Source: Escherichia phage phiWec188
Reading direction: 5' to 3' (one strand)
Sequence record: LC739537.1
Length of the DNA: 64,000 nucleotides
In this document: one piece after another, positions 3,468 through 22,135 of the stretch
Numbering within the stretch: the first letter of the stretch is position 1
Layout: each line of letters starts with the position of its first letter
Notes under the pieces: generated by a model
The model's input: only the letters and a program-made list of their open reading frames with translations
What the model was told of the DNA's origin: nothing
The model's database searches: none
Translations under genes and position numbers: made by a program

Positions 3468-3470
3468 GTG

Positions 3471-4523: not shown

Positions 4524-4531
4524 TACCAATG

Positions 4532-4556
4532 AACCTCCTTCGGGAGGTTTCTTACT
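4532..4556 (+). terminator. intrinsic terminator (AACCTCC-TTCG-GGAGGTT + T-rich tail)
   Basis: perfect 7-bp stem with UUCG tetraloop immediately after terC stop. Confidence 0.6.
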
Positions 4557-4571
4557 AATATAGGAGGAATT

Positions 4572-4922: not shown

Positions 4923-5164
4923 TGAAAGTTGTTTGGGTTGTGTTTGAAAATATTTGTTTTGCAATAGGTTTGTTCGTCATACTTTTTGTGTTGACAAACG
5001 TGATCAATGGTAGTAAAGTATCCCTATACAAAGACGGGGAGCAGATTTACTGCTTCTCTGGAGATTTCAAACACACCTGTGTTAATATGCAGAAAGAAGA
5101 AACTCCACACCAGAAGTCAAGAGAAGATTTTGATTGGTGGTCACTACTTAATAACTTAAGATGA
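4922..5164 (+). CDS. small membrane protein
   Basis: start overlaps upstream stop; N-terminal transmembrane segment. Confidence 0.45.
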   Translation: MKVVWVVFENICFAIGLFVILFVLTNVINGSKVSLYKDGEQIYCFSGDFKHTCVNMQKEETPHQKSREDFDWWSLLNNLR

Positions 5165-5173
5165 GGAGAAAAT

Positions 5174-6040: not shown

Positions 6041-6043
6041 TGC

Positions 6044-6634
6044 ATGAATACCGAGAGAGATTTAAAACTCTTGTGGTGGGAAGTGATGCAGGAGATCAAG
6101 GAGGATTTCCCTGTTTACTACAACATGCTACGTGAAGCTGGATATACGGCTTGCGTTAGGAACAAAGTGAATAACTCTTTCGGTTGGTGCAACTACCGAG
6201 AAAAGATTGTTGTTGTGAATTGGCACTTGCATAAAAACTCCACAAGGGATATGATAGTGGACACAATGAAGCATGAAATTGCTCATGCTATTGATGGTTG
6301 TATGGGTAAGTTCAGTCGTCATGGACCACACTGGCAAAAACTGGCAGCAGAGTTGGGAGCCAATCCTAAAGCTACTTCCAAAGAACCGTTCAATCATGAA
6401 TACAAATATGTTCTTGTTTTGGTAGACAGATTTGCCACAAGATGTGTTAGAGGGTATAATCGTAAACCTAACCGTATGACCCCAGGGAAACAACCACATA
6501 TTTGGTTGAAGAGTGATAAAGAGGGGACAGAAGGAAAAATATGGTTGTATAAATGGGAAGATTGGGTTAAAGTAGCTAAAGAATATGGTGTTTCACCTTA
6601 CACAAGAGAAATAGAAGAGGAGAATGAAGAATGA
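6044..6634 (+). CDS. SprT-like zinc metallopeptidase domain protein
   Basis: HEIAHAI (HExxH) preceded by hydrophobic beta-strand region typical of SprT/Wss1-like fold. Confidence 0.55.
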   Translation: MNTERDLKLLWWEVMQEIKEDFPVYYNMLREAGYTACVRNKVNNSFGWCNYREKIVVVNWHLHKNSTRDMIVDTMKHEIAHAIDGCMGKFSRHGPHWQKLAAELGANPKATSKEPFNHEYKYVLVLVDRFATRCVRGYNRKPNRMTPGKQPHIWLKSDKEGTEGKIWLYKWEDWVKVAKEYGVSPYTREIEEENEE

Positions 6635-7743
6635 CAAGTCCATTTTTGAAAGCGGCAACTGGTGGTCAAAAGAAATCTGAAACGAGTGTACTGACTGCTA
6701 CTACAGACGCAAGCAAGTCCGTGTTCGCTCCGAGTGTCCTGGATGCAAGTCCGGTGTATGCTCCAGCAGCGCCAAAAGCTGTGCCTACCCTGCCAACAAT
6801 GTCTCGTAAAGAGATTGAAGAAGTAGGTGCAGAAGCAGGTTTAACTCTCCGTTCTCTGAATGCTGAAGTGCTGAAGCACCAACGTAGCAATCAAGGTGAC
6901 GAAATGAGTCAACGCCTTACAGCTTTGATTAAACAAGCCAAACAGCTTGATCCTGCCTCCATTAAGCAGAGTAAAGGTGTAGGTAAACTCATCAAGAAAC
7001 TGATGGGGATGAAAGAAGATCTCTTCGGTGAGTTCGATAACGTGAACAACCGTATCGAAGAACTCGTTAAGAATCTTCAAATGGATATCCGTAAAGAAGA
7101 AGATTCTCTGGTGTACCTGGATAAGCTGCACCAGGCGATCGGACAGTACGCCGCAAGCCTGAATCGTGATATGGAATTACTCACAGCAGCTTATGAGCAA
7201 GAACTGGCTACTTTTGAAGCCACACCAGAAGATGACGTAGAAGCCCGTCAACGCGTCCGTGACACGCTTGATCTCTTGGAGATACGTATTGCTGACTTGA
7301 AGGCATTACGCTTGCTGTGCGTGCAAATGGGACCGCGTGTATTGGGTATGCAGAAAGTATCTGCCAGCCTCATGCGTTCTGCTCGTAATATTGTGAACAA
7401 TGTGATTCCTGCTTACTCGGCAAACTTCTCAATGTATATTGAAAGTCTGCGCCAGAAGAAAGCAGCAGAAACACAGAACAACGTTCTGGACGAGTTCAAC
7501 CTGGCAATCAAACTGGGTAGCGATCTTGCCACACAGAATCAGATCGAAGCAGCAGCACTGGCTAACCGCCAAGTACTGGATATTGAAACCCTGCGTCACG
7601 ATCAGGAAAACTTGGTTAAGATGTTGGAAGAAACTAACCGCATCAATACGGAAGCCCGTGCTGCCCGTGTTGATTACATCAATGAAGTTCAATCTCTCGA
7701 AGATGGGATGGTTGACGCTGTTAAGAAGGGGCTTGGTAAATGA
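6631..7743 (+). CDS. alpha-helical protein, possible TelA-like (toxic anion resistance family)
   Basis: 370 aa, predicted helical/coiled-coil, size and context (adjacent to TerC/TerD genes) fit TelA; no diagnostic motif verified. Confidence 0.35.
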   Translation: MTSPFLKAATGGQKKSETSVLTATTDASKSVFAPSVLDASPVYAPAAPKAVPTLPTMSRKEIEEVGAEAGLTLRSLNAEVLKHQRSNQGDEMSQRLTALIKQAKQLDPASIKQSKGVGKLIKKLMGMKEDLFGEFDNVNNRIEELVKNLQMDIRKEEDSLVYLDKLHQAIGQYAASLNRDMELLTAAYEQELATFEATPEDDVEARQRVRDTLDLLEIRIADLKALRLLCVQMGPRVLGMQKVSASLMRSARNIVNNVIPAYSANFSMYIESLRQKKAAETQNNVLDEFNLAIKLGSDLATQNQIEAAALANRQVLDIETLRHDQENLVKMLEETNRINTEARAARVDYINEVQSLEDGMVDAVKKGLGK

Positions 7744-7934
7744 GAATCCGTGTCTATGTAGTTGAAGATTATTTTGGTGTACGCTATGACGAGGAACGTC
7801 GATTCGCACCTATGTGCAGCGTATATTCTCCAAGCGTCTTAGCAAGTTTACGGAAAGATTATTCTTATGAAGCTTGTAATAGTTTTGGTTTTGAGATTCT
7901 TTCAGACGTAGAATTTAATGAGGAGGAAGAATGA
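7740..7934 (+). CDS. hypothetical small protein
   Basis: overlapping start/stop coupling. Confidence 0.35.
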   Translation: MRIRVYVVEDYFGVRYDEERRFAPMCSVYSPSVLASLRKDYSYEACNSFGFEILSDVEFNEEEE

Positions 7935-8104
7935 AAACATTGCGTGTGAACATCGAAACTGCCTGGGCTGGATGTACCGAGGTTGTGGATATCGAAATTG
8001 AAGACGATATGTCTCAAGAAGATATCGAAGATCTTGCAAAAGAAACATTTCAGGATTATTGTAATTACGGGTTCCATATTTTAGGGGAGGAAGAAGATGA
8101 TTAA
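7931..8104 (+). CDS. hypothetical small acidic protein (57 aa, below ORF-track cutoff)
   Basis: GAGGAGGAAGA RBS then ATG 7931; translated by hand. Confidence 0.35.
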   Translation: MKTLRVNIETAWAGCTEVVDIEIEDDMSQEDIEDLAKETFQDYCNYGFHILGEEEDD

Positions 8105-8495
8105 CCACACAAACGTACATTTGAAATTAACGGTAACAGATCCGACTCTTTTCATCAATCTCACAAGCGGTGAAATTTACGAAGTTATCACAGACGAGGA
8201 TGGTTCTTGCTTCCTTAAAGGTTATTATCTCTGTGAATCTGATGAGTTGGTATCTATTATCACCTTGGGAGAATACGAAGAACCAGGTTTCCGTGTAGAG
8301 GTTGTTAAGAATCCTGATATTATCCAATTAACTCGACAAGAACTGATCACCATCATGGAAGATGCTTTTATCGATGGGTGGAAGACTCAAAACTATGATT
8401 GGAGTGGTCCAGAAGACTTCCTGCGTCTTCATAAAGAATATGACGAGTGTAGTGAGACTACTCTTGCCATTGATGATATTAAGGCAGGTCTGTAA
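8097..8495 (+). CDS. hypothetical protein
   Basis: coupled ORF. Confidence 0.45.
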   Translation: MINHTNVHLKLTVTDPTLFINLTSGEIYEVITDEDGSCFLKGYYLCESDELVSIITLGEYEEPGFRVEVVKNPDIIQLTRQELITIMEDAFIDGWKTQNYDWSGPEDFLRLHKEYDECSETTLAIDDIKAGL

Positions 8496-9064
8496 TGGGT
8501 TGCTTTAGTTTTCTGTGTAAGGAGTCGGGCAAAGCTGCCCTCTCCACATCTTTCGATGGTTCTCCTTGCTATCTTTTCCTGTTGAAAGATGGGAAGGTTA
8601 TTGAAGAGATGTATGGCAACTATGATAGTTATGGACGTGTCTTCAGCAGTAAGCAGGATGCTCACGGGAACAGAGAAAGCTTTAAATGGACTATGCCTTG
8701 GAGCGACGTTTGTGATCTTATGTTCTCTGTAAACCGTGGAGACGGTATTGCTATGGTTTTAGCAGAACACTTTACAGGAGAAGTCCCTACAAAGCGATCC
8801 GAGGACGATCCTAATCAAGGTTGGGGAGATGGAGAAGAAGAGGAAGAAGAGGATTATTTCTACAGTACCGAAAATAATATTTTCAAACGTGTTGACAATC
8901 CTTATCATAAAGTGCATAATGTCCTCATTGAAACAGAAGACGACAAAATGGGAATTGAAGAAGATGATCCTCTTGTAACACTGCCTACAAGCGAGTTACA
9001 AAAAATCATCAAAGAAGCTTACGATTTGGGCTTCAAAACTGGTAAAGGAGGAGGGAATGTTTGA
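8495..9064 (+). CDS. hypothetical protein with poly-Glu linker
   Basis: coupled ORF; GDGEEEEEED acidic tract. Confidence 0.45.
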   Translation: MGCFSFLCKESGKAALSTSFDGSPCYLFLLKDGKVIEEMYGNYDSYGRVFSSKQDAHGNRESFKWTMPWSDVCDLMFSVNRGDGIAMVLAEHFTGEVPTKRSEDDPNQGWGDGEEEEEEDYFYSTENNIFKRVDNPYHKVHNVLIETEDDKMGIEEDDPLVTLPTSELQKIIKEAYDLGFKTGKGGGNV

Positions 9065-9329
9065 TTTTAAAATAAAAGATTCAAAACCCCAAGATGTAGC
9101 ACTTCGTTTCGAAGAGTTGGGGATTGGTGAAACTTTCATGTATTATTCAGCATATGAAGAAAATGGTTTGGATACGTTTGCAAACTTAGTATTTATTAAA
9201 AGCGGCGGCGCGACTGCTGTTTGTTTGAATAGTTCATCAAGAGGGAGTGTCCATACCGTATCCCCAGATGTACCGATGGTTGCAGTTCGTTTAGTAGTTA
9301 CCGATATCACACTTACAGAGGAGAAATAA
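9057..9329 (+). CDS. hypothetical protein, paralog A (pairs with 10351-10632)
   Basis: shares KDSKP...SAYEENGLD motif with the 10351-10632 product; each precedes a TerD-type gene. Confidence 0.5.
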   Translation: MFDFKIKDSKPQDVALRFEELGIGETFMYYSAYEENGLDTFANLVFIKSGGATAVCLNSSSRGSVHTVSPDVPMVAVRLVVTDITLTEEK

Positions 9330-9330
9330 T

Positions 9331-10131
9331 ATGTCCAATAAAATTAGCCTGAAGAAACGCCAAGACACCCTGACCATTTCACTGAAGAAAAAGAAAATCG
9401 TCAACGAAGATCAAAAGATCGTTCTGCGTGTTGCAAGCGCACTGGATATCTCCGGTAGTATGTCCAGCTTGTATCGTAACGGCACCGTCAGTGATTTCGT
9501 AGGTAAGCTGCTGCCCTTCGGTATGATCTTTGACGATAATGCACAGATCGATATGTGGGCTTTCAACAATAGCTCTCGTGAAATCACTCCGGCAACTGCT
9601 GATGTGTATGATGATTACGTTGGTAAATGCATTAATGGTCGTGTAACAGTTCAGGGTGGTACAAGCTACGCCCCTGTTATGCAAGATATCTACGATTCTT
9701 ACTTCGGTAGCACTACCAAGTATGAAACTGTAGAAACTCAAGTAACGAAAGAAATCCCTAAGAAAGGTTTCTTCAACCGTCTGTTGGGTAAAACTGAAAC
9801 TGTAGAAGCTGTTGTAGAAAAAACTGTAGCCGTTGCTGTGCCTGGTGTAGACGTTACTCCGGCAGTTGTGTTCTTCCAGACAGATGGTGAGAACGATGAT
9901 CCGAGCCGTGTACTCTCCGTACTGGAAAAGAACAAGGGTAAACCTATCTACTGGTTCATGGTGGGTGTTGGTAGTGCTCGTTTCTCTTTCCTGAAAGATT
10001 TGGCTGAAGCTTACGACAACGTAGCATTCATTGGTCTGAACGATCTTTCCTTGACAGACGAGCAGCTTTACGATAAACTCTTGTCTGAAGAGTTCGGTGA
10101 GTGGGTCGAAAAGGTTGGTGCTAAGAAATGA
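9331..10131 (+). CDS. vWA domain protein with TerD-like N-terminal leader (TerY/TerF-like)
   Basis: N-terminal ISLKK repeats as in TerD; MIDAS-type DISGSM, GGTSYAP, FFQTDGENDD, MVGVG motifs of a von Willebrand A domain. Confidence 0.65.
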   Translation: MSNKISLKKRQDTLTISLKKKKIVNEDQKIVLRVASALDISGSMSSLYRNGTVSDFVGKLLPFGMIFDDNAQIDMWAFNNSSREITPATADVYDDYVGKCINGRVTVQGGTSYAPVMQDIYDSYFGSTTKYETVETQVTKEIPKKGFFNRLLGKTETVEAVVEKTVAVAVPGVDVTPAVVFFQTDGENDDPSRVLSVLEKNKGKPIYWFMVGVGSARFSFLKDLAEAYDNVAFIGLNDLSLTDEQLYDKLLSEEFGEWVEKVGAKK

Positions 10132-10370
10132 TCGATACGCTGATCTCTCAAACGGTGTTACAAGTGATGCGCGAGAGAGAAGCTTTCATCATGAAGGGTC
10201 TTAAAGATTACTTTGGGACTCTTTCTTTGGAAGAACTCAAGCTACGCGTTGAGATCCATCAGTATCCTTTTTATGAAGAATGGATTGACAAAGCAAATAA
10301 AGCTGTTATAATGCGTATCAACAAACCAGAAATCACGACAGGAGGACAAGATGTTAAATTTCGCTATTAA
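10128..10370 (+). CDS. hypothetical small protein
   Basis: coupled ORF. Confidence 0.4.
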   Translation: MIDTLISQTVLQVMREREAFIMKGLKDYFGTLSLEELKLRVEIHQYPFYEEWIDKANKAVIMRINKPEITTGGQDVKFRY

Positions 10371-10632
10371 GAAAGATAGCAAACCAGAGATTCAGACTTG
10401 TCGCATTGCAAATCTTACACATCGGGATTTGTTTGTTCTGAAAAGCGCCTACGATGAAGACGGTCTTGACCCAGAAGCAGTCATCGTTTATATGGTATTG
10501 CGGCGAGACGAAGACACCAAGCACCCATACAATGCGGTAGAAATGAATTACAATGCAATGTTGTGTTCAATACACCATACGGCAGAGTTGGTGCAGGTAG
10601 AGTTAACAGTTAACGAAATTAAACTTAAATAA
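10351..10632 (+). CDS. hypothetical protein, paralog B (pairs with 9057-9329)
   Basis: see paralog A. Confidence 0.5.
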   Translation: MLNFAIKKDSKPEIQTCRIANLTHRDLFVLKSAYDEDGLDPEAVIVYMVLRRDEDTKHPYNAVEMNYNAMLCSIHHTAELVQVELTVNEIKLK

Positions 10633-10647
10633 TAGAGGAGACATATA

Positions 10648-11250
10648 ATGAGCGATAAAATTTCCCTGAAAAAAGGTTCCACTGACAAGATTTCCCTGAA
10701 GAAAGTTGCTCCGGCACTGAAAGAACTGCGTCTGGAGTTCTCCTGGAAATCAAACTCTAAACTGGATTTGGATGTAAGCGCACTTGTATGCCGACACAAC
10801 GCTTCTGGCAACCCTGAAATGCTGTCTGCACGTCATCTGGTTTGTTATGCTAACAAGTTTGATCCAGAACGTTCTGTATTCGCAGGTGATGATGTTCGTG
10901 ATGGTACTGGTCAAATGGAACAGATTGATGTAACCTTAGCTAAGATCTCCGATAAAGCCGAAGAGATTGCTTTTGTCCTGACTATTGATGATGAAACGGG
11001 CCAGAAACGTCTGGGCCATGCTACTGAAGGTATGCTGAAGATTTTTGATGCCGAGCGTAACGTTGAGATCCTGGACTTCGACTTCCTGGCTCCTGAAGTA
11101 GCTGGTAACACGATCTGCCACGTAGCTTCCTTGGTTCGTGAAGACGGTGAATGGAAACTGAAAGCTTACGGTGTTGGTAAAGCAGGTATGGATATCTGTG
11201 ATGTGGTTATGGCCTTCGGTGGTCAGAAAGAATGGTATGATTGCCCGTAA
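10648..11250 (+). CDS. terD: TerD-family protein
   Basis: ISLKKG..ISLKKVAP, DLDVSAL, GDDVRDGTG, FVLTIDD and GEWKLKAYG motifs line up with E. coli TerD. Confidence 0.85.
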   Translation: MSDKISLKKGSTDKISLKKVAPALKELRLEFSWKSNSKLDLDVSALVCRHNASGNPEMLSARHLVCYANKFDPERSVFAGDDVRDGTGQMEQIDVTLAKISDKAEEIAFVLTIDDETGQKRLGHATEGMLKIFDAERNVEILDFDFLAPEVAGNTICHVASLVREDGEWKLKAYGVGKAGMDICDVVMAFGGQKEWYDCP

Positions 11251-11287: not shown

Positions 11288-11316
11288 TTGCAAAAACGCC
11301 TCTCATGTGTTATACT
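11288..11316 (+). promoter_or_regulatory. sigma70 promoter candidate with extended -10 (TTGCAA -35, 17-nt spacer, TGtTATACT)
   Basis: TG dinucleotide one base upstream of TATACT; good spacing; upstream of hydrolase gene. Confidence 0.5.
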
Positions 11317-11347
11317 GGTAGTTCATTCACCCAAAAGGAGGCAAAAT

Positions 11348-11869
11348 TTGCTGATAAAAAACTTTGTAACAGTTGCGTTACTATCCTTAACTGCTTTTAC
11401 ATTTACACCTGTCACGGCAACCGCCGAAGCTGCAAACGTAAAGACTGCTAAAGTAGTTCACAAATGTGCAAAGCAAGATACTAAAGAAAATCTCTTAGCT
11501 TGTGCAATTTACGCTGAAAGTCGTAATCAGGGTAAACGTGGAATGTATGCTGTAGGTAACGTAGTATTGAACAGGAAAGGTGATGATTACTTCCCTGACA
11601 ATATTAAAGATATTCTCTTCCAACGGGGACAATTCTCTTACAGGAAGAAGTTTAACGTTACTGAAGCAGAGCGATGGAAAGAAGCTAAAGCTATCGCAAA
11701 ACGACTTATATACCTGGATACAAACTTCCCTACACTTAGAGAAGCCCAGGACATGACAAAAGGTGCGACATTTTTTAAGAAAGTAAAAACCCGTGCACAC
11801 TGGACAAAAGATATGGTCTTAGTGTATCGTTATAAAGAACATCAGTTCTACTCACCGACAAGGAGCTAA
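11348..11869 (+). CDS. SleB-type cell-wall hydrolase with N-terminal signal peptide (endolysin candidate)
   Basis: TTG start 7 nt after AAGGAGG; LIKNFVTVALLSLTAFTFTPVTATAEA signal-like leader; AIYAESRNQ...GMYAVGNVVLNR hydrolase motifs. Confidence 0.6.
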   Translation: MLIKNFVTVALLSLTAFTFTPVTATAEAANVKTAKVVHKCAKQDTKENLLACAIYAESRNQGKRGMYAVGNVVLNRKGDDYFPDNIKDILFQRGQFSYRKKFNVTEAERWKEAKAIAKRLIYLDTNFPTLREAQDMTKGATFFKKVKTRAHWTKDMVLVYRYKEHQFYSPTRS

Positions 11870-12566: not shown

Positions 12567-13130
12567 ATGATTTATTATATTACCCCTTATCTGACTGGAG
12601 ATATCGGCAAAGCAATTAACGATGCTATTGCCGTTCTTCATGAAGATAGTTGGGTGTGTTTACGTGATACCGACACCATGTTCTTACTGCCAGACCAACC
12701 TTCTATGTTGGAAGATTTGGTAGCAACCAACCCACCGTTCGATGTAATAGGTGCATCCTGTAACCGTTTAGGCAGTAGTTATCAACTCCTCGGCGGAAAG
12801 ATTAATGATGATCCTGACATTCTGAACCATATTTCTCATGCCAAAGTTGCTCGTGATTACTATGGCGATGAAATTGAAGAAGTCCCGCAAGGCACTCCCT
12901 TGGCAGGTTTCTTCCTGTTGTTCAGGAAATCATTATGGAAGGAGATCCCTTTTGAAGAACGTAGCATCCAGTTCGATATAATCTTCTCAAACACTTTACA
13001 TGAACGAGGAAAAAGGTTAGGATTGATGCGTGGGATGTATCTCTTCCACATTTACCGTTTAGGTCAAAAAGATCCTCAACGGGCAATATCACACCTCATG
13101 CACTGTCATGATCACAGGAAAACTATTTAG
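12567..13130 (+). CDS. glycosyltransferase-like protein (putative)
   Basis: LRDTDTMF DxD-like motif in Rossmann-like N-terminal half. Confidence 0.4.
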   Translation: MIYYITPYLTGDIGKAINDAIAVLHEDSWVCLRDTDTMFLLPDQPSMLEDLVATNPPFDVIGASCNRLGSSYQLLGGKINDDPDILNHISHAKVARDYYGDEIEEVPQGTPLAGFFLLFRKSLWKEIPFEERSIQFDIIFSNTLHERGKRLGLMRGMYLFHIYRLGQKDPQRAISHLMHCHDHRKTI

Positions 13131-13138
13131 GGGGAAAG

Positions 13139-13822
13139 ATGGAAAATGTTAAAATTGGGGTTGGCGTTATCACTGTAGGCGTTCGTCCACTTAAAGATTA
13201 CATGGTTGCACCTGGTGTAGACTTCAAAGTGTTCCACGATCCAGATCGTAAAGGTGTAGCCTATGCTCGCAACCAACTGATGAAACAGTTTTATGACGAA
13301 GGTTTTGATTACTGGTTTATTTTCGATGATGATTGCTATCCAGTCAAACGTGGTTGGGAAGAATACTTCGTTAAGCAAGCTGTTGAAAATGGTTGGGACT
13401 TCTTTGGTATGCCAGAATACTTCAAAGATACCGTGATCGGTTGTTCGGGAGAAGTAGTTTTCTGGGAACTGGCTATGTGTCAGTTTGCAATGTATTCTCG
13501 TGCAACTGTTGAGACAATGGGCTACTTCCGTCCGTACACACATGGATATGGTTTCGAAGATGCAGAATGGACTAACCGTCTGAAAGCTTCAGGTTTGAAT
13601 AAAGGACTTCAGGGCGTACCTTGTCCGATGCGCATTATGGCATATATTCACCCTGACGATGTTTTCGGTGACAACCCTCTGCCTTTTGCTAACCTGACAA
13701 AAGAAGAGAAAGAAGCAGCGATCGGGGTTAACTGGGAAGAATACAAACTGTCTTTGGAGGATATCAATAATGGCAAAACACACATCTCTTTTGAAGAGGC
13801 TGAAGGATATGGCGCTAAATAA
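13139..13822 (+). CDS. glycosyltransferase family 2-like protein
   Basis: GVGVITVGVRP Rossmann start and FIFDDDCYP DXD motif. Confidence 0.5.
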   Translation: MENVKIGVGVITVGVRPLKDYMVAPGVDFKVFHDPDRKGVAYARNQLMKQFYDEGFDYWFIFDDDCYPVKRGWEEYFVKQAVENGWDFFGMPEYFKDTVIGCSGEVVFWELAMCQFAMYSRATVETMGYFRPYTHGYGFEDAEWTNRLKASGLNKGLQGVPCPMRIMAYIHPDDVFGDNPLPFANLTKEEKEAAIGVNWEEYKLSLEDINNGKTHISFEEAEGYGAK

Positions 13823-14756
13823 AAAACCCACCCTACTGTGTGACAACAAATTCAACAGTGGTTGTGATTATCATCGCGTCGTTATGCCGTTTTCTAATGT
13901 AGAGATAAAACCACGTACCGATGTACTGGTCTTTAATCGCATCTTCTCGAAAGGTGCTGACGAAGTAGCAAAGCTTAAGCGTCAAGGTGTTAAGATTGTT
14001 GTAGATTTGGATGATTTCTATCAGTTGAATCCAGAGCACTACCTGGCGCATCTGTACGCGCCAAACACCCGCACCATTGTGGAAATGGTTAAACTGGCAG
14101 ATGTGGTTATCGTGACAACAGAATACTTGGCATATAAAATTCGTCACTTAAACTCTAATGTTGTTGTGATCCGAAATGCTCTACCGTTCGATGATGACCA
14201 GTTCACTCTGTCGAACGATCGTACTTCGGGTACGCCTATTATCTGGGCTGGAGGTGCAAGTCATGAACCGGATCTACGTTTGCTTTCAAATACTTTTGAT
14301 GATAGTCTGTTGTCTATCGCAGGGTATGAAGCGAGCAGCACAGTGACAGGGCAAGAGTGGGTTAAGATCCGCCGTAGTTTGCCTAATGCGCAGTATAAAC
14401 CTGCTGTAGATTCTTTGAATGATTATATGTCTGCATACGATGGTCATGCTATGGCTGTAGCTCCGTTAGTTGATAATGACTTCAACCATTGCAAGAGCAA
14501 CCTAAAAGTATTAGAAGCTGGTGCTAAAGGTATTCCAATCGTTTGTTCTAAGGTATTACCTTACTACAACCCGATCGATGCCCGTGCAGTAACCTTCGCA
14601 GATAGCAAGGCAGAGTGGCACTATGAAGTTGTAAAACTACTTCGTAATCCAAACTACCGTGAAGATCGTGGACTGTTCTTGGCTGAACATGTTCGTACTC
14701 ATTACAACTTGAAGGATGCAAACGAATTGCGTCGTCAAGTGATCGAAAGTCTGTAG
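13770..14756 (+). CDS. glycosyltransferase, GT-B-like (paralog 1)
   Basis: C-terminal NLKVLEAGAKGIPIVCS sugar-donor-binding motif; paralogous to next gene. Confidence 0.5.
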   Translation: MAKHTSLLKRLKDMALNKKPTLLCDNKFNSGCDYHRVVMPFSNVEIKPRTDVLVFNRIFSKGADEVAKLKRQGVKIVVDLDDFYQLNPEHYLAHLYAPNTRTIVEMVKLADVVIVTTEYLAYKIRHLNSNVVVIRNALPFDDDQFTLSNDRTSGTPIIWAGGASHEPDLRLLSNTFDDSLLSIAGYEASSTVTGQEWVKIRRSLPNAQYKPAVDSLNDYMSAYDGHAMAVAPLVDNDFNHCKSNLKVLEAGAKGIPIVCSKVLPYYNPIDARAVTFADSKAEWHYEVVKLLRNPNYREDRGLFLAEHVRTHYNLKDANELRRQVIESL

Positions 14757-15707
14757 GTGTCTATGGGACAAATTATTCTTGACAATCGTGCTGGAAAAGA
14801 ATATAGTGTCTGCGATTATCACCGAGTAATGCTGCCTTACACAAGGCAGTTCTCGGCGCAACCGTCACAGAACGTATATGTCTTTAACGGTGTCCCTACA
14901 AAAGGGAAACAAGGTTTCATAGCCCTTAAGAGCATGGGTTTTAAGATGGTAATGGATTTGGATGACTCCTTAAACATTCCTCAAGGACACATGCTGGAAG
15001 ACATTTTTGATGCAGGTATTCGAGAAGACTTGCAATGGTTTCTTGAACGTAGTGATCTTGTGACGACAACAACACCTGCTCTCCAGGTGGAACTGTCCCA
15101 GTACAATCCTAACGTACATATTATTCCAAATGGCTTACCGTTTGATGAGGATCAGTTCACGTTAACTCGTGATCGCTATTCCAAATCACCGATAGTATGG
15201 GCTGGAAGTGAAACACATAAACAAGATTTAGCTCTACTGCCGAATTTTGGAAGGGATTTAACAATCTGCGGATTCCGTAGAGATAGTGAAGTACTAAGTA
15301 GTCAGCAATGGACTGACATACGTGAAAAAGTGGCTCCAAGCTGCAATTATGAGGCTGTTAGACCATATGAGAGCTACATGGAATCTTATGATGGTCATCA
15401 AATAATGCTTGCGCCTTTGACCGATAACCTGTTTAATAACGCCAAAAGTAACCTTAAGATTCTGGAGGCTGGTGCCAAGGGTCTGCCTTTGGTCTGTTCT
15501 CCTCGTGAGAATTACTTCACAGAAGAGTTTAAGGATTTACTGTTCTTTGCAGAATCAAGAAGTGAATGGGAAGATATTGTTAATTACCTGATCCAAGAAC
15601 CTGATGTGGGGATCGAGAAGGGATTGGCTTTAGCTAAATATGTTCGTAAGCATTATCACATTGATGTGCTGAATGAACGCCGTAGATTATTATTTGAGGA
15701 GCTATAA
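14757..15707 (+). CDS. glycosyltransferase, GT-B-like (paralog 2)
   Basis: GTG start; shares CDYHRV and NLKILEAGAKGLPLVCS with upstream gene. Confidence 0.5.
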   Translation: MSMGQIILDNRAGKEYSVCDYHRVMLPYTRQFSAQPSQNVYVFNGVPTKGKQGFIALKSMGFKMVMDLDDSLNIPQGHMLEDIFDAGIREDLQWFLERSDLVTTTTPALQVELSQYNPNVHIIPNGLPFDEDQFTLTRDRYSKSPIVWAGSETHKQDLALLPNFGRDLTICGFRRDSEVLSSQQWTDIREKVAPSCNYEAVRPYESYMESYDGHQIMLAPLTDNLFNNAKSNLKILEAGAKGLPLVCSPRENYFTEEFKDLLFFAESRSEWEDIVNYLIQEPDVGIEKGLALAKYVRKHYHIDVLNERRRLLFEEL

Positions 15708-15985
15708 TGCTGAATACTTTTGATTTTGAGTACACTACGAAAAGTGGTTTTAATGTTGTGGTGGAAGTTGATTATTACTACGAAGAACCTGATCCACACT
15801 CACGGGAAAGTGATTGGGATTACCACGGTGGGTTACTGATCGACGGTATCCGTTTCTATGCGGGTCTGGAACAACTTGATGCGGAAGATATTAACGTGAC
15901 CGTAACAGAAATCGCATACCAATTCAAAAAACATATGGAGGCATTAGAAGCCGCGTACATGATGGAAACTAACGAATCATTTTAA
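15707..15985 (+). CDS. hypothetical acidic protein
   Basis: coupled ORF. Confidence 0.45.
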   Translation: MLNTFDFEYTTKSGFNVVVEVDYYYEEPDPHSRESDWDYHGGLLIDGIRFYAGLEQLDAEDINVTVTEIAYQFKKHMEALEAAYMMETNESF

Positions 15986-15997
15986 CAGGAGAGGATT

Positions 15998-17779
15998 GTG
16001 ACACACATTATAACGAAATATGGATTTGATGTTGATCTTAGCAGGGAAGGGCACACTGGCTGTCCACGCTGCATGAAAAATGGCAAGGATCGCTCTCGTA
16101 ATAACCTGATGGTTTATGGATTGGATTCTAACGGTGAGCATAAAGGAGCCAAATGCTTTGCGTGTGAGTACACAATCCCCAGCGTTGAATGGTTAAGAGA
16201 GAATGGTGAAGTTTTAGAAGAAGAGGAGGATATTGTGGGTTCGGAATTTAATAAAGAGATTCATCGTAAGATTGTAGAAGAAACAGGCACTAACCCACGA
16301 GGCTACCGTGGGATCAAGGAAGAATATTCTAAATTCTACGGTGTTCGTTACCAGTATAAACAAGAAGAATCTGGTGTTGTTGTGGAACATACTTTGTATC
16401 CAACAACTATCGGTAAAGAACTGGTAGGTTTTAAGCGTCGTATCCATCCTAAAGACTTCTCCAAGCCCATTGGTCAAGTAGGTAAAGATGTAGATTTGTT
16501 TGGACAATTTCGTTTCCTTGAACGTTCCCACACCGTGATCATTACTGGTGGTGAACATGATGCCTTGGCAGCATATCAAATGTTGGCAGAAGGTCTTGAC
16601 AGAAAATATGAATTACCAGCGGTAGTTAGTGGCACAACTGGTGAAACCAGTATGTATAAACAGGTACAGGCACAGTACCCTTTCTTTGAGAAGTTCAAGA
16701 AGATCATCGTCTGCATGGATAATGATAAGGCAGGTAAGGAAGCTTTTGAGAACATTGTAAAAGTGTTGCCTCGTAATAAAGTTTACCTGATGAAGATGGA
16801 ACTGAAAGATGCCAATGAATACCTGTTGCAAGATAAAGCAAAAGATTTTGTGAAGGCTTATTGGGCTGCAAAACTTTATACCCCAGCGGGTGTTTATGCT
16901 TCGAACGAACTCTATGAAGCTGCAATGGACTGTCTGGATGCACAAGTGATCACCCTTCCTCCGTTCATGCGTACTGCTGCGAACATGTTGGGTGGTGGTC
17001 TGGTAGAAGAAGAGATCACAGTTATTCTGGCTAAAACGAGTATCGGTAAGACGTTGATGGTGAATGAGATCACCAAACACATTATCGTAGCCCATCCAGA
17101 ACATGTGTTGGGTATTCTGTCCCTGGAAGCAACGTATAAGAAATACTCACGTAACCTTCTTTCTTCGTTCCTGCATATTCCTTTGCATCGTAAGACTAAG
17201 GAAGAAAAGGCTGCGATCCTGGAAGAGAACAAGGAAGCTATTAATAACTTCTACGTTCGTGAAGATGGCTCTCCTCGTTTCTTTGTTTGTGATGACCGTG
17301 GTGCAGACATTGATTCAATCAAGGAGAAGGTGCTGGAGATGATTATCTACTTTGGCATTACCATCTTGGTAATTGACCCATACTCGGATCTGTTGTCGGG
17401 GATGAGTGTTCAGGAACAAGAAGAGTTGGCAACGTGGTTGAAGCGCATCATGAAAGAATACGGCATTACAATCATCGTGATCTCCCATGTTAAGAAAGCT
17501 GCGAACAATGGTAATGAGCACTTAACCGAAGATGATGCAATGGGTAGTAGCTTCTTGGCTAAAGGGGCAGGTATTACACTGGCACTGGAACGAGATAAGA
17601 GTCATGAAGACCCCGTTATGAGAAACACCACTATGTGCTACATCCTCAAAAACCGAGAATTTTCGGAAACTGGTCCGGCTGGGGAGTTTTATTACGATAT
17701 TAAAACTGCCACGCTACACGACAAAGCACAGTATTTTGCTAACCCTGATAATGCAGGTGGTGCAGAAGGCGCGTATTGA
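15998..17779 (+). CDS. bifunctional DNA primase/helicase (T7 gp4-like)
   Basis: N-terminal CPRC...CFAC zinc ribbon, central TOPRIM-like region, Walker A (AKTSIGKT) and Walker B (LVIDPYSD) of DnaB-type helicase. Confidence 0.8.
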   Translation: MTHIITKYGFDVDLSREGHTGCPRCMKNGKDRSRNNLMVYGLDSNGEHKGAKCFACEYTIPSVEWLRENGEVLEEEEDIVGSEFNKEIHRKIVEETGTNPRGYRGIKEEYSKFYGVRYQYKQEESGVVVEHTLYPTTIGKELVGFKRRIHPKDFSKPIGQVGKDVDLFGQFRFLERSHTVIITGGEHDALAAYQMLAEGLDRKYELPAVVSGTTGETSMYKQVQAQYPFFEKFKKIIVCMDNDKAGKEAFENIVKVLPRNKVYLMKMELKDANEYLLQDKAKDFVKAYWAAKLYTPAGVYASNELYEAAMDCLDAQVITLPPFMRTAANMLGGGLVEEEITVILAKTSIGKTLMVNEITKHIIVAHPEHVLGILSLEATYKKYSRNLLSSFLHIPLHRKTKEEKAAILEENKEAINNFYVREDGSPRFFVCDDRGADIDSIKEKVLEMIIYFGITILVIDPYSDLLSGMSVQEQEELATWLKRIMKEYGITIIVISHVKKAANNGNEHLTEDDAMGSSFLAKGAGITLALERDKSHEDPVMRNTTMCYILKNREFSETGPAGEFYYDIKTATLHDKAQYFANPDNAGGAEGAY

Positions 17780-17783
17780 TTCA

Positions 17784-17812
17784 GAAGGGGCGCAAGCCCC
17801 TCTTGACTTTTG
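17784..17812 (+). terminator. terminator-like hairpin (AGGGGC-GCAA-GCCCCT + T-rich)
   Basis: after primase-helicase stop. Confidence 0.5.
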
Positions 17813-17862
17813 ATTGAGGAATGTGATACCCTTCAGGTTGAGTTACATAATATGGAGGACTA

Positions 17863-20460
17863 ATGAGTAAGTTTACATGGGATATTGAAGCAACCGCATT
17901 ACTGAACAATGACACAATTGATTACCTGGCAAGCCCTTATCGATTGAAAGACACTTTTGGTATGCATTGTATTTGTCTGGAAAACCACGAAACAGGAGAG
18001 ATCATTGCTTTTCACGATGGTCCTAAGTACATTTTCGATGGTCGTCCTTATGAAGAGTCTGACGGTAAGTACACTTATGTACTGAAGGAGTATGTGGCAC
18101 AGGAATACACACACTTCCCTCTGGCAGATTTTCCAGATTTTGTCAACCATACAGGTAAGTTCGCAGATAAGCCTGAATACCTCGTAGAAATGGCTGTAGC
18201 CCATAACGGCATCAACTATGACCACTTGGCAGTTAAGCTTTACTACGGGCTGAATTACAGCGTTAAATACAACACTTGGGGTGATTCGAAAGTTAAGATT
18301 ATTGATACCTTAATCCTTAGTAAAGTATTGAACCCTGATCGCAAGGTTGATGGTAAACCTGGACACAACTTGAACGCCCTTTCTAAAAAAGCTGGCGGGG
18401 ATGTTAAGATCGATTTCCGTAAAGAGATTCCAGAAGGAGAGCGATTCAAGACGTTCGCCGCAGATATGTTGTACTACTGTATCTACGACAACAAGGCAAC
18501 TACAGCAGTATATTATTACCTCATGGAAGAATGGGGTGATTATAAGAAGTGGCAAGAGCCGTTCGACTTGGAGCAACGTATTGCGGATATCATCACCCGT
18601 CAAGAACACCGTGGCTTTAAGTTCAACATGCAACAAGCTGAACAGAACCTGGAATTCTTGGACAAAGAAATGGAACGTCTACGTTTGTTGGTAGAGCCTA
18701 TTCTTCCACCTAAGCCAGCAACTAAAGGTTATCTGAAAGATTTTATTCCACCGAAACTTCAGATCAAGAAGAACGGTGAGCCAACAAACCATATCATCAG
18801 GTTTGCGGAGAAACATGGCGGTAGCCTTGAAGAACGTGAAGGTGATTGGTGGCTGCTTGTTTTAGATAAAGAGTTTAAGTTACCGATCTCAAGTGAAGAA
18901 CCTATTTGTGAACCTACCATTCCGTCTACACTGAATGATACGACACACATTAAAAACTGGCTTGTAGGTTTGGGTTGGGTTCCGTCTGAATATAAAGACA
19001 AAGACTTGACGCTTAAATCTGGTTCGAAGATCAAGAAAGATCCTGACGACTTAGAGAAAGGTATTCTGTCTTATGTCAAACAAACTCTGGAAAGCAACTT
19101 CTGTAATGATCGTTGCGAACACTTACAAGCTGATGCTGAAACATTGGAGCTTAGAATCCGTGAACGTCTGGCTAAAGGGAAAGGTCGTGGTCTTAAAGTG
19201 CTGACCAACCCATGCTTCACGAAGGGACAGGAGAAAGAGATTTGTCCTAATCTTGAAGCACTGGGCGAGAAGTTCCCGTATGCCACGCAGATTGTGCAGT
19301 ACCTGACGTACAAACATCGTCGAAACTCTATTTTGGGCGGTGGTGCAGATTGGGAAGACGATGAGGAAGATCAAGAATACGATAAAGGCTTCTTAGCAGC
19401 AGTTCGTGCCGATGGTCGTATATCGACTCCAGCGGCTACGTGTGACGCTGCAACGTCTCGTATGAAGCATCGCTCTGTTGCGAACGTTCCTCGCGTTACA
19501 TCGTTGTTTGGGTACGAAATGCGTAACTTGTTTGGGGTAGAAACACCACGTTACTTCCAGATCGGTTATGACTTTGACTCCTTGGAAGCAAAGATTGAGT
19601 CGCATTATTGTTGGCGCTACGAGCCGGAGCCTCATGAATACTGTAACGCCCTCTTGTTAGAGAAGCCTAACGATGTTCATACCATGATGGCAAGGCGTAT
19701 CACAGAAACTATTGGACGTAAGTTTGAACGTAGTCCAGCTAAATCTGTTAAGTACGGGATTACATATGGAGCACAGGCAGACAAGGTTGCTAAGACAATT
19801 GGTAGTGATAAGTACACAGGGCAACTGGTGTTTGATGCATTCTGGGAAGCAGCTTTCCCGTTAGCACAACTTAAAGAGAAGTTGAATGCTTTCTGGGTTA
19901 ACACTGGTAAGCAGTATGTTCTTGGTATTGATGGACGTAAAGTACCAACACGATCTGCACATGCAATCTTAAACTCACTGTTCCAAAGTGGCGGGGTTAT
20001 CTGTGCTAAACGTGCAATGGTGATTTATGACGATATGATCGAAGAGGAGGGTTTGGCTGTTGACTTCTTCGTTGATGACTGGAAGAATAAAGACTTCGTT
20101 CAGCAAATGATTGCTTACCACGATGAAGCGCAGCTTGAAGTATCTCGTAACCTGGTAGAATTTAAATGGTTCTCTAAAGAATCTTTGGGCTGGGTTAAAG
20201 TGGATGATGAGAAAGAGCAGAAGAAAATAGATGCAGAATGTCTTGCAAAAGCTAATGAATGGAAGCATAATAAAGAGAAAGAGACAGGGCAGATTTGGGC
20301 TAACGTTCACGAATCACCTAAAGGTGGTTGGTTTACCGCTTATAGTCGTGCCGGAGAGCTTGCTTCTCTTGCTGTTATCAAAGCTGGGGAATATTACAAG
20401 CTAAATGTTCAGCTTACTGCTGGATACGATGTTGGTAGTTCCTGGGCAAGCTGTCACTGA
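17863..20460 (+). CDS. family A DNA polymerase with 3'-5' exonuclease domain
   Basis: Exo I WDIEAT; pol motif A YDFDSLEAKI, motif B RSPAKSVKYGITYG, motif C YHDE. Confidence 0.85.
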   Translation: MSKFTWDIEATALLNNDTIDYLASPYRLKDTFGMHCICLENHETGEIIAFHDGPKYIFDGRPYEESDGKYTYVLKEYVAQEYTHFPLADFPDFVNHTGKFADKPEYLVEMAVAHNGINYDHLAVKLYYGLNYSVKYNTWGDSKVKIIDTLILSKVLNPDRKVDGKPGHNLNALSKKAGGDVKIDFRKEIPEGERFKTFAADMLYYCIYDNKATTAVYYYLMEEWGDYKKWQEPFDLEQRIADIITRQEHRGFKFNMQQAEQNLEFLDKEMERLRLLVEPILPPKPATKGYLKDFIPPKLQIKKNGEPTNHIIRFAEKHGGSLEEREGDWWLLVLDKEFKLPISSEEPICEPTIPSTLNDTTHIKNWLVGLGWVPSEYKDKDLTLKSGSKIKKDPDDLEKGILSYVKQTLESNFCNDRCEHLQADAETLELRIRERLAKGKGRGLKVLTNPCFTKGQEKEICPNLEALGEKFPYATQIVQYLTYKHRRNSILGGGADWEDDEEDQEYDKGFLAAVRADGRISTPAATCDAATSRMKHRSVANVPRVTSLFGYEMRNLFGVETPRYFQIGYDFDSLEAKIESHYCWRYEPEPHEYCNALLLEKPNDVHTMMARRITETIGRKFERSPAKSVKYGITYGAQADKVAKTIGSDKYTGQLVFDAFWEAAFPLAQLKEKLNAFWVNTGKQYVLGIDGRKVPTRSAHAILNSLFQSGGVICAKRAMVIYDDMIEEEGLAVDFFVDDWKNKDFVQQMIAYHDEAQLEVSRNLVEFKWFSKESLGWVKVDDEKEQKKIDAECLAKANEWKHNKEKETGQIWANVHESPKGGWFTAYSRAGELASLAVIKAGEYYKLNVQLTAGYDVGSSWASCH

Positions 20461-20466
20461 TGGTAT

Positions 20467-20484
20467 GGGGCTTCGGCCCCTTTA
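20467..20484 (+). terminator. terminator-like hairpin (GGGGC-TTCG-GCCCC + TTTA)
   Basis: directly after polymerase stop; inside the 5' extension of ORF 20460-20690. Confidence 0.5.
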
Positions 20485-20495
20485 TAGGAGGATAT

Positions 20496-20690
20496 ATGAG
20501 TTACGATTTAGATTACTTTGGTATGCCTTACCTACCCGATGAGTTCGCAGATGAGGCGGAGGATCGTGAGTGGGATGATGGGGATATCCGTTGTTGGTCT
20601 TGTGGTAAAGACATGTCTTATGAACAACACATGCATAACGATGGATTCTGTCCACACTGTCAGAATGAAATCGATTTAGAGGAGGACTAA
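20496..20690 (+). CDS. small zinc-ribbon protein
   Basis: start set to ATG 20496 after GGAGGA RBS; CWSCG...CPHC. Confidence 0.45.
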   Translation: MSYDLDYFGMPYLPDEFADEAEDREWDDGDIRCWSCGKDMSYEQHMHNDGFCPHCQNEIDLEED

Positions 20691-20692
20691 TA

Positions 20693-20860
20693 ATGACTTC
20701 CGGTATTATGATCTGTTATAAGATCGTTCGTATTGTTGGGGATGAAGTTACTACTCGCCACTTTATGATTGAAAATCACGCTGATGAAGTGTATAATGAT
20801 TGGCTGGAACAAGGTGGATACGACTTCGTATCTAAAGAAACTTTCCACTTGGAAGTATAA
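20693..20860 (+). CDS. hypothetical small protein (55 aa, below ORF-track cutoff)
   Basis: GAGGAGGA RBS then ATG; hand translation. Confidence 0.35.
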   Translation: MTSGIMICYKIVRIVGDEVTTRHFMIENHADEVYNDWLEQGGYDFVSKETFHLEV

Positions 20861-20869
20861 GGAGAAGAA

Positions 20870-21088
20870 ATGCGTAAATTAGTAAGTTTTAATGTTTCAA
20901 TTCTTGTTGATGAACAACATGAAGATGTTATTAAAGGTCTTGCAAATAAGCTTGCAGGTGGAATGACGGAAGCTGAAGTGTGGGAAGAATGTGCTCGACT
21001 TTATGAGGAAGGTGTTATTGAGGTCTTGGGGGATGAGATTAATATGGACGATGTTGTAAAAGTAACTGTGGAGCGTATCAATGACTAA
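20870..21088 (+). CDS. hypothetical protein
   Basis: AAGGAGAAGAA RBS. Confidence 0.45.
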   Translation: MRKLVSFNVSILVDEQHEDVIKGLANKLAGGMTEAEVWEECARLYEEGVIEVLGDEINMDDVVKVTVERIND

Positions 21089-21677
21089 ATCAAGCCAGAT
21101 TACCCTTGCCTGTGAGATCCTTACTGTTCTCAAGATTGCTGATCCTCGTTCAATCCTGGCAGGTGGCGCAGTCCGTGACTGGCGAATGTTAAATGCTGCT
21201 GGGCGAGATCTTGACTTCTACACCTCTCTTCCTGCATATAACGGGGAAGCAGAGATTAAAGAATTTATCACCACATCTTTACGTGGGACAAATATTAAGC
21301 TTTTAGGTAACAAAGATTTACCTGAAAACTATTCGTCAATGGTTGGTTTGAAACATGTGTTTGAATTTGAACGTGATGGTCAATTATGTAACCTCATGGT
21401 CATGGAAAGGGGCTACCTACCACAAGTAGCACATAACTTTGATACATCTGTTTGCCAAGCTTCTTTCGACGGAGACACCTACTGGTATAGTGATAACTTT
21501 GAAGTTACACTCGCTACTGGTATTTGTTTCTTGCACAAAGATGCAAAGGAGGATGCCAAACATGTTCGTAAACTTGCTGATCGCTTCCCAACTATGCGTT
21601 TTGTTCGTGAAGTACATGTTCGTCCCGACCCGCAAGCGGATAATTTTGAAGATTTTCAGGACGACATTCCTTGGTAA
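21081..21677 (+). CDS. minimal nucleotidyltransferase, CCA-adding/poly(A) polymerase head-domain-like
   Basis: ILAGGAVRDW followed by GRDLDFY (GGxVRD ... DxD signature of class II tRNA nucleotidyltransferases). Confidence 0.55.
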   Translation: MTKSSQITLACEILTVLKIADPRSILAGGAVRDWRMLNAAGRDLDFYTSLPAYNGEAEIKEFITTSLRGTNIKLLGNKDLPENYSSMVGLKHVFEFERDGQLCNLMVMERGYLPQVAHNFDTSVCQASFDGDTYWYSDNFEVTLATGICFLHKDAKEDAKHVRKLADRFPTMRFVREVHVRPDPQADNFEDFQDDIPW

Positions 21678-21722
21678 ATAAAGCTTGACTTTCACTAATC
21701 TTTTATGATAGGATGACAATCA

Positions 21723-22118
21723 ATGACTGAACGTTCAAAAATAAGTGTTGAAACTGAATACAGCGAATACCTGAACAGTTTGATACTTGTTGAAAAAGAT
21801 GTAATAGGTCTGGATAACTCGTTCTTCTTTCAAATCCTGATAGGTAAGGGTGGACACCGAAAGTTATTCTCTCGTGTGGAAGACTCTGACCTATCCGAAA
21901 CTGAAATAACGGTTAAAGAATTTATTAGCTTGCAGGATAACATCCGAAAAGTTATTGACACAGCCGGAAACGCTGTTACAATAAAACTCGATATGCATTC
22001 TGTGCAATTTGTTCATTTTCCGAATGGAGAAATTGGAGTTGGAATAGGTAAAGGTAAGTACCTTTTAGAAAAAGAAAACGCAGAGCTTCTTCGTGAGTTC
22101 TGTGCAAAAACAATGTGA
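21723..22118 (+). CDS. hypothetical protein
   Basis: ORF. Confidence 0.45.
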   Translation: MTERSKISVETEYSEYLNSLILVEKDVIGLDNSFFFQILIGKGGHRKLFSRVEDSDLSETEITVKEFISLQDNIRKVIDTAGNAVTIKLDMHSVQFVHFPNGEIGVGIGKGKYLLEKENAELLREFCAKTM

Positions 22119-22135
22119 ATATAGAGGAGATAATA

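Follow-up and report, generated by a model that had tools for sequence, protein, structure and literature searches.

A conserved four-glycosyltransferase block with a phage-encoded rhamnose pathway in Stephanstirmvirinae: a candidate glycosylation module for a non-DNA acceptor

What does a phage glycosylate when it carries four consecutive glycosyltransferase (GT) genes next to its replication genes? The question is raised by a stretch of 64,000 nucleotides from Escherichia phage phiWec188 (sequence record LC739537.1), here called the window, in which an earlier note had marked four glycosyltransferase-like genes at positions 12567-15707 and had read their placement as typical of DNA base glycosylation that evades restriction, with modification of host surface glycans as the alternative. 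Our analysis leads us, with slightly more belief than doubt, to another answer, namely that the genes belong to a conserved module of the subfamily Stephanstirmvirinae that assembles a rhamnose-containing glycan on an acceptor other than DNA. Whole-genome results refer to Escherichia phage phiWec190 (record LC739539.1; 150,689 bp), which contains the window at 100% identity (megablast) on the opposite strand, window position w being record position 106913 - w. This phage is a myovirus of the Stephanstirmvirinae, and a genus 'Wecvirus' has been proposed for it (PMC12695924).

The four glycosyltransferase genes

All four open reading frames (ORFs) are present on the + strand as the earlier note had described, and PHROGs assigns each of them to a glycosyltransferase family (E = 1e-74 to 1e-138). 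They are labelled GT1 to GT4 by their order; families of similar name are always marked as types. GT1 (12567-13130, 187 aa; PHROG 14179) is a minimal GT-A-fold glycosyltransferase whose D34-x-D36 motif (CLRDTDT) is invariant across 21 homologues, and GT2 (13139-13822, 227 aa; PHROG 2456), a GT-A enzyme of GT2/GT7C type, has the motifs R44, D63-D64-D65 and E140-D141, with FIFDDDCYP and YGFEDAE as the surrounding sequences. The AlphaFold models of these two agree with the GT-A assignment made earlier from the DxD motifs, with a single Rossmann-like alpha/beta/alpha domain in which the DxD motif follows the fourth strand. GT3 (13770-14756, 328 aa from the first ATG) and GT4 (14757-15707, 316 aa; GT4/CgeB-like), both of PHROG 7162, are modelled with two Rossmann domains and an inter-domain cleft, as expected of a GT-B fold.

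The two GT-B proteins have in common the motifs CDYHRV and SNLK(V/I)LEAGAKG(I/L)P(I/L)VCS, which had been quoted for them before, and are 41.6% identical across 303 aa (E = 4e-77; BLASTP-type comparison); to judge from this likeness they are true paralogues. All of the 17 columns that are invariant in a 59-member family alignment are kept in both, which suggests that both are probably active. The longest ORF of GT3 begins inside GT2 and shares its last 53 nt (13770-13822), and an internal ATG at 13809 is preceded by an AAGGA Shine-Dalgarno sequence. As relatives are annotated with products of 314-315 aa, the real start of GT3 is probably at 13809 (315 aa) and that of GT4 at the ATG 14763 (314 aa) instead of the listed GTG 14757. 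The four proteins have no membrane segment, and their isoelectric points (pI) lie between 4.8 and 7.7.

The block is situated just upstream of the genes for a primase-helicase (15998-17779, +) and the DNA polymerase PolA (17863-20460, +; 865 aa), as had been noticed, with a 92-aa ORF (15707-15985, +) lying between. Since the genes of the block abut or overlap and the first strong terminator is found at 17786-17801, 3' of the primase-helicase gene, the four transferase genes, the 92-aa ORF and the primase-helicase gene are probably co-transcribed. Promoter-like sites were no more frequent in a scan of the region than in shuffled sequence.

A phage-encoded rhamnose supply

A complete dTDP-L-rhamnose pathway is encoded in phiWec190 at record positions 19343-22618, beside nrdAB; these rmlBACD genes are outside the window, ~20 kb past its high-coordinate end. 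All four products exceed the cut-offs of their NCBIfam equivalogs (score/cut-off: RmlA, TIGR01207, 464/361; RmlB, TIGR01181, 429/365; RmlC, TIGR01221, 244/156; RmlD, TIGR01214, 245/224). RmlC and the GT block occur together, with 105 and 106 records respectively for Escherichia, 5 and 5 for Campylobacter-labelled phages, 3 and 3 for Justusliebigvirus, and 3 and 3 for Phapecoctavirus, and Klebsiella phage 05F01 has both. This co-occurrence argues well for dTDP-L-rhamnose being the donor of one or more of the transferases. Olsen et al. 2020 described the complete pathway within the region for DNA metabolism in Phapecoctavirus and phi92-like phages and suggested rhamnosylation of hydroxymethylated nucleotides (PMC7552041), so the idea of DNA glycosylation had already been published.

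Conservation and portability of the block

The four genes are syntenic in Phapecoctavirus Ro121c4YLVW (gp027-030) and in PsgM04F, in Justusliebigvirus PaulScherrer/Bas60 (bas60_0048-0051; 69.7% identity to the window protein for GT3 and 75.2% for GT2) and, at 49% identity, in a metagenomic relative (contig L004); orthologues already carry a glycosyltransferase annotation in RefSeq. Divergent Klebsiella members have a single GT-B gene (05F01 genes 133-135), which points to a duplication within the E. coli-infecting lineages as the origin of the tandem pair.

The 92-aa ORF encodes a small acidic protein (pI 4.1, SDWDY motif, PHROG 4240) directly after the GT-B gene, and its distribution among isolates equals that of the block. 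Homologues take the same position after GT-B in PaulScherrer, in the metagenomic relative, in Klebsiella phage 05F01 and in contig L019, a distant one of 5.8 kb. On L019 an epimerase/dehydratase gene and two GT-A genes are followed by a 317-aa ORF where GT-B would be expected, and then by the small acidic ORF. The 317-aa ORF has no Pfam match and presumably encodes a GT-B enzyme, since a homologue of 317 aa (P0027) lies on a contig of equal length. That the small ORF follows GT-B even on this distant contig suggests that it belongs to the glycosylation module, possibly as a fifth component acting as acceptor, adaptor or regulator.

Related modules are portable among unrelated phages and are often found in the structural region. 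One is near PolA and ligase (contig L011), in another (L012) a 7C-type GT-A comes after GT-B and the pair is flanked by a tail-repeat protein and terminase/portal, a 35-kb phage has GT-B immediately upstream of terminase (L013), and in Streptomyces phage Zuko GT-B is beside UDP-glucose dehydrogenase and terminase. With a position that varies between phages, placement next to replication genes is not informative on function, and the weight that had been given to it as a sign of DNA hypermodification is removed by these distant homologues, which adjoin terminase, portal or tail genes.

Families, folds and relatives

GT4 is the sole transferase of the four that passes any Pfam threshold (PF13524, Glyco_trans_1_2; 29.8 bits, cut-off 25), and GT3 remains below the same cut-off with 22.9 bits; going by the names of BFVD matches, PF13524 is the family of the CgeB/YkvP spore-protein transferases. 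GT2 is below threshold for Glycos_transf_2 (PF00535; 20.1 bits, cut-off 23.3) and for Glyco_transf_7C (PF02709; 15.7 bits, cut-off 23). None of the four transferases is covered by an NCBIfam family, nor is the 92-aa ORF, and the sequences of GT1, GT2 and GT4, together with family profiles of GT1 and GT2, gave nothing meaningful against all PDB sequences.

When 1.84 billion representatives were searched exhaustively with a profile, 1,273 relatives of GT2 came up. When 137 sequences (136 of the 150 listed relatives plus GT2) were scanned with Pfam, 64 matched Glyco_transf_7C (best E = 3.6e-11), 44 matched Glycos_transf_2 (best E = 2e-33) and 16 matched the TET-associated glycosyltransferase (TAGT) family, all sub-threshold (best E = 1.6e-5). 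From these comparisons the nearest relatives of the transferases appear to be generic enzymes of GT2/GT7 type and GT4/CgeB type. Among the matches listed, the phage relatives of GT2 beyond its own clade are only GT2/7C-type transferases of ~500 mycobacteriophages, e.g. PMC gp100 and Rizal gp229.

The solved folds closest to GT4 include enzymes with lipid-linked acceptors (PglA, 8dqd; WlaC, 6eji; PimA, WaaG and WbnH), and several of the enzymes most like it in structure work on small molecules (sucrose-phosphate synthase, BshA, TreT and GlgM). Because the top fold matches cover lipid-linked, small-molecule, protein and polysaccharide acceptors, the acceptor is not readable from fold comparison. 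Literature searches found no functional study of the GT genes.

Phage DNA as a possible acceptor

If DNA were the acceptor, rhamnose or a rhamnose-containing glycan on a modified pyrimidine would block host nucleases. Known glycosylated bases begin with a ThyA-type hydroxymethylase/hydroxylase or with TET/5mYOX (PMC13326640; 10.1101/2023.12.21.572611). Neither a ThyA-type hydroxymethylase nor TET/JBP was found among the window proteins scanned, or by Pfam in 31 non-window phiWec190 proteins of at least ~170 aa, these being the ones not clearly named in the record, and the same phiWec190 scans detected no C5-methyltransferase partner or DNA-hydroxymethyl kinase. No ThyA-type hydroxymethylase or TET is annotated in Ro121c4YLVW outside its 38-62 kb structural region, and both ThyA and TET are absent from all seven genomic contexts of distant homologues. 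The remark in the earlier note that no hydroxymethylase or kinase could be recognised in the window is borne out, and extends to the rest of the genome among proteins of at least ~170 aa. In each of these respects the gene content argues against DNA glycosylation.

The only related match is a divergent ThyX-like protein of 331 aa, encoded in phiWec190 (record positions 27960-28955, - strand, outside the window) beside an NT5C-like nucleotidase, NrdAB and rmlBACD. It passes the Pfam model Thy1 with 36.9 bits and scores 29.5 on NCBIfam thyX, the cut-off of which is 87.9; THRxxSRxxxSSR is found in place of the RHR motif, so that the first Arg is missing. The Thy1 match was rejected as a hydroxymethylase, the protein being ThyX-like and not ThyA-like, devoid of the first RHR Arg and far under the thyX equivalog cut-off. 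ThyX-type enzymes are known as methylases, not hydroxymethylases, which also speaks against DNA glycosylation, and we know of no ThyX-type hydroxymethylase.

A comparison with the T4 alpha- and beta-glucosyltransferases (AGT and BGT) and other DNA glycosyltransferases, which had been proposed as a check, gave no specific relatedness in sequence or structure. In tblastn searches of 50,697 phage records, made with GT2 and with GT3, the organism groups tabulated (small groups were collapsed) included no Straboviridae or T-even phages, and the 50 nearest viral folds include no recognisable AGT or BGT entry, ~10 of the entries being unnamed. On TAGT (PF20691) the match of GT2 is confined to residues 36-74 and scores 18.7 bits, below the gathering threshold of 27.5, and thus GT2 falls outside the family; the TET/JBP or ThyA partner that is expected in the genome with TAGT-type enzymes was also not found among the phiWec190 proteins scanned. 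The TAGT matches were rejected as a sign of DNA glycosylation, since the family neighbours of GT2 are of GT2/7C type and none of them reaches the TAGT cut-off.

Restriction data from related phages point in the same direction. Maffei et al. 2021 found the Vequintavirinae and their relatives, including the phi92-like phages Bas60-62, to be 'exceptionally susceptible' to restriction-modification (RM) systems, effective protection being lacking 'despite a putative dTDP glycosylation machinery' (PMC8594841). Bas60-62 (Justusliebigvirus) have the same syntenic block of four transferase genes, with ~70-75% aa identity. In the ESCO collection HincII digested all phage DNAs but three, two of which (ESCO47 and ESCO58) are listed under Tevenvirinae. 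Restriction fragment length polymorphism patterns were obtained for the isolates of Phapecoctavirus and Justusliebigvirus (PMC10269720). The third resistant phage, ESCO10, we infer to be the Mosigvirus of the collection. We confirmed the GT block in ESCO8, 9, 13, 25 and REC. As only these three DNAs were resistant, two from Tevenvirinae and one from the inferred Mosigvirus, block-bearing Phapecoctavirus and Justusliebigvirus DNA must have been cut by HincII.

The phiWec190 genome also shows extreme avoidance of restriction sites. An observed/expected ratio (O/E) below 0.1 was obtained for 17 of the 56 testable palindromic hexamers, compared with 17 of 3,920 non-palindromic ones. Five hexamers are missing altogether, GGATCC (25 expected), CTGCAG (36), TCCGGA (25), CAGCTG (21) and CACGTG (20), and GGTACC is found once (18 expected); the virtually eliminated hexamers include the BamHI, PstI, SalI and KpnI sites as well as CACGTG, CAGCTG, CCATGG and TCCGGA. 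The tetramer CTAG is absent from the genome (~243 expected) and from the window (190 ± 13.5 in shuffles); GATC and CCWGG show no avoidance. Sites that do occur in phiWec190 include those of EcoRV (71), HindIII (110) and HincII (~144). CTAG is also missing from PsgM04F and only in part avoided in Ro121c4YLVW and PaulScherrer, and the hexamer avoidance is common to all three lineages compared. A 50-kb stretch of T4, whose DNA contains glucosyl-5-hydroxymethylcytosine (glucosyl-hmC), served as a control and showed no such effect (median O/E 1.01; none of 46 palindromes below 0.1). Avoidance of restriction sites implies that the DNA is exposed to restriction enzymes, as such selection would otherwise be senseless. 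The loss of CTAG and the elimination of hexamers may be a more surprising feature of the genome than the GT block.

The favoured reading and its rivals

In the reading that we favour, the two small GT-A enzymes and the lineage-specific GT-B pair would be soluble, cytoplasmic transferases that depend on nucleotide sugars. The phage Rml enzymes would provide dTDP-L-rhamnose in the infected cell whatever the host serotype, and from this and host UDP-sugars the four transferases could build a short rhamnose-containing oligosaccharide, with about one linkage for each enzyme. The presence of four transferases together with a dedicated deoxyhexose pathway is what points to oligosaccharide assembly in the cytoplasm. 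The acceptor would then be found among the structural proteins of the phage, one or several of which would receive the glycan in the cytoplasm, either ahead of assembly or in the course of it. What puts virion proteins first among the candidates is analogy only, with the glycosylated capsid and tail tube of mycobacteriophages, the glycosylated capsid of chloroviruses and the Bacillus spore crust; we make this proposal tentatively and would not rate it as high as an even chance. With similar reserve it may be suggested that the virions of all Stephanstirmvirinae, among which are phages studied for therapy, are coated with a rhamnose glycan by eight or nine genes that form a self-sufficient system, namely RmlABCD, the four transferases and perhaps the 92-aa ORF.

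Several observations weigh against this reading. Sub-threshold TAGT matches recur in 14 of 15 GT2 orthologues (best E = 3.4e-5), and GT2 bears the R...DDD...ED motifs common to DNA-modifying GT-A enzymes (10.1101/2023.12.21.572611). The transferase genes sit in a replication operon, the rml genes are part of a nucleotide-metabolism module beside NrdAB and the divergent ThyX-like protein, and the restriction experiments were made on sister genera and not on phiWec190 itself. Searches of the literature yielded no glycan or proteomic data on Stephanstirmvirinae virions. Finally, BLASTP detected no similarity between GT2 and the Che8 transferases 108-110, the genes that Freeman et al. 2023 reportedly connected with mycobacteriophage virion glycosylation, which leaves the mycobacteriophage link at family level only; GT2 as a homologue of the Che8 virion-glycosylation enzymes was rejected, because the mycobacteriophage matches represent a different gene of GT2/7C type.

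Among the rival explanations, DNA base glycosylation appears improbable to us. It is contradicted by the RM sensitivity of the block-bearing sister phages, HincII cutting, site avoidance, the lack of ThyA or TET among the proteins scanned and the lack of specific kinship, and the charge of the proteins, three being acidic and GT3 near-neutral, is a further point against it. A sparse rhamnosyl modification of DNA, seeded by the ThyX-like enzyme and permissive to EcoRI, EcoRV and HincII, has at best a very slight chance of being correct. Remodelling of the host envelope, which the earlier note had named as its alternative, is unlikely but should be taken seriously. Rhamnose side chains would be added to lipid-linked intermediates or to the core of lipopolysaccharide (LPS) at the inner membrane face, altering LPS, enterobacterial common antigen, colanic acid or NGR glycans, so that superinfection is excluded or progeny are not trapped on debris. 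The lipid-linked-acceptor enzymes among the closest solved folds of GT4 would fit this explanation, as would a dTDP-rhamnose supply that makes the phage independent of host serotype, and these phages use surface-glycan receptors and have many glycan-degrading fibres (PMC8594841; PMC11990801). Yet the cycle is strictly lytic, leaving little time for renewal of outer-membrane glycans, and homologous GT pairs are present in Streptomyces and other unrelated phages whose hosts have quite different envelopes. The known phage seroconversion systems typically belong to temperate phages and have membrane-embedded Gtr or O-acetylase proteins, unlike the four transferases with their lack of membrane segments, and genes for a flippase, polymerase or ligase are not found with the block.

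The target might also be a small molecule, or else a host protein or RNA, a possibility to which we give little credence. The transferases might decorate a predicted nucleoside-like product of an adjacent Ter-type cluster, or else inactivate a host factor; we know of no precedent. The cluster (669-11250, +) is complete, is located immediately upstream on the same strand and is syntenic across the subfamily, all of which is in keeping with such a role, as are the small-molecule enzymes among the top structural neighbours of GT4. It comprises genes for a HAD hydrolase (1273-1929), a ComF-like phosphoribosyltransferase (PRTase_3; 1901-2749), a Macro domain protein (2759-3232), TerC (3549-4523), a SprT-like protein (6044-6634), TelA (6631-7743), a vWA-TerF protein (9331-10131) and TerD (10648-11250), all on the + strand. 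The GT module is found without a visible Ter cluster, however, in five contigs (L011, L012, L013, L019 and L020), for which reason a necessary link to the cluster was rejected. Four transferases and a sugar pathway would also be much for one metabolite, and tailoring or export genes are not evident.

Other features of the window and genome

The + strand of the window carries early and middle genes from position 1 to ~23.5 kb, among them a gene for a SleB-type cell-wall hydrolase (11288-11869, +) after the Ter cluster. Tail, baseplate and head genes follow on the - strand from 23.5 kb onwards, with, at the end, an array of 11 tRNA genes (60836-63288, -; Met x2, Ile, Pro, Gln, Gly, Thr, Tyr, Ser x2 and Arg).

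In phiWec190 the genes for the primase-helicase and PolA adjoin (15998-20460) and PolA is uninterrupted. An endonuclease gene is inserted between the two in PsgM04F, the polymerase of PaulScherrer contains an intein, and in Ro121c4YLVW a longer polymerase gene (1077 aa) is annotated, with two additional ORFs upstream. The region is a hotspot for mobile insertions. The record of 'Pseudomonas phage PsgM04F' has 97% identity with phiWec190, and several records labelled 'Campylobacter phage' (B15, C3 and A150) hardly differ from E. coli Stephanstirmvirinae; the hosts given in these records look doubtful, unless the host ranges are remarkably wide.

Significance and comparison with known systems

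Phages of the genera Phapecoctavirus and Justusliebigvirus infect a broad range of hosts and turn up repeatedly when phages are isolated with therapy in mind; all of them devote eight or more genes to dTDP-rhamnose and sugar transfer. DNA glycosylation was proposed for this phage group in 2020 and doubted in 2021, and annotators are likely to repeat the guess, so it is useful to have the counter-evidence collected. If virion proteins were indeed the target, tailed phages of Gram-negative hosts would, to our knowledge, have their first demonstrated case of virion glycosylation. 'Glycan shields' would then extend from actinobacteriophages to coliphages, with a bearing on antibody recognition, gut persistence, mucus binding and particle stability of therapeutic phages. 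Should the host envelope be the target, a new kind of receptor remodelling by lytic phages would be at hand.

The T4 alpha- and beta-glucosyltransferases, which glucosylate hmC, belong to the CAZy families GT72 and GT63. Compared with these enzymes and the RB69 arabinosyltransferases, 20-30 other GT-B enzymes are structurally closer to GT4. T-even systems depend on a ThyA-type hydroxymethylase/hydroxylase, whereas the phiWec190 scans found none, and T-even DNA is generally restriction-resistant (as in the HincII-resistant ESCO47 and ESCO58) and the 50-kb T4 stretch is free of site avoidance, in contrast to the RM-sensitive and strongly site-avoiding Stephanstirmvirinae lineage. The TAGT enzymes, of base-J glucosyltransferase type, resemble GT2 in the GT-A fold and the R...DDD...ED motifs. 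They differ from it in that the match covers ~40 residues around DDD and is sub-threshold, and no TET/5mYOX or C5-methyltransferase partner was detected in the phiWec190 scans.

Precedents for viral acceptors other than DNA are the structural proteins of chloroviruses, mimiviruses and Sulfolobus turreted icosahedral virus (STIV). Sequence identity to the transferases concerned (Paramecium bursaria chlorella virus 1 (PBCV-1) A064R, STIV A197 and mimivirus R655/R699) is very low, the hosts are eukaryotic or archaeal, and the acceptor is proven for some of them only. For tailed phages, virion glycosylation has been demonstrated in mycobacteriophages, including structural proteins of Che8 and Rita (summarised in PMC11256854). 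The phiWec190 module resembles that of Che8 in having multiple soluble GT-A transferases outside the structural module, those of Che8 having capsid and tail proteins as their cytoplasmic targets. It differs in having a Gram-negative host and in the addition of GT-B enzymes and a complete Rml pathway.

In the spore crust of Bacillus subtilis, a small GT-A (SpsA), CgeB-family GT-B enzymes and the Rml enzymes SpsI-L lay a rhamnose-containing glycan on a protein shell. As judged from this general knowledge and from the SpsA and PF13524 matches, the spore crust is the cellular system most like this set of enzymes, although it is not a viral one and the likeness is one of fold and family only (10-16% identity), a matter of functional analogy and not of descent. 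The phiWec190 genes represent known superfamilies (GT-A of GT2/7C type and GT-B of GT4/CgeB type), and the module can be counted among the glycosylation kits, known from viruses before, that bring their own sugar pathway.

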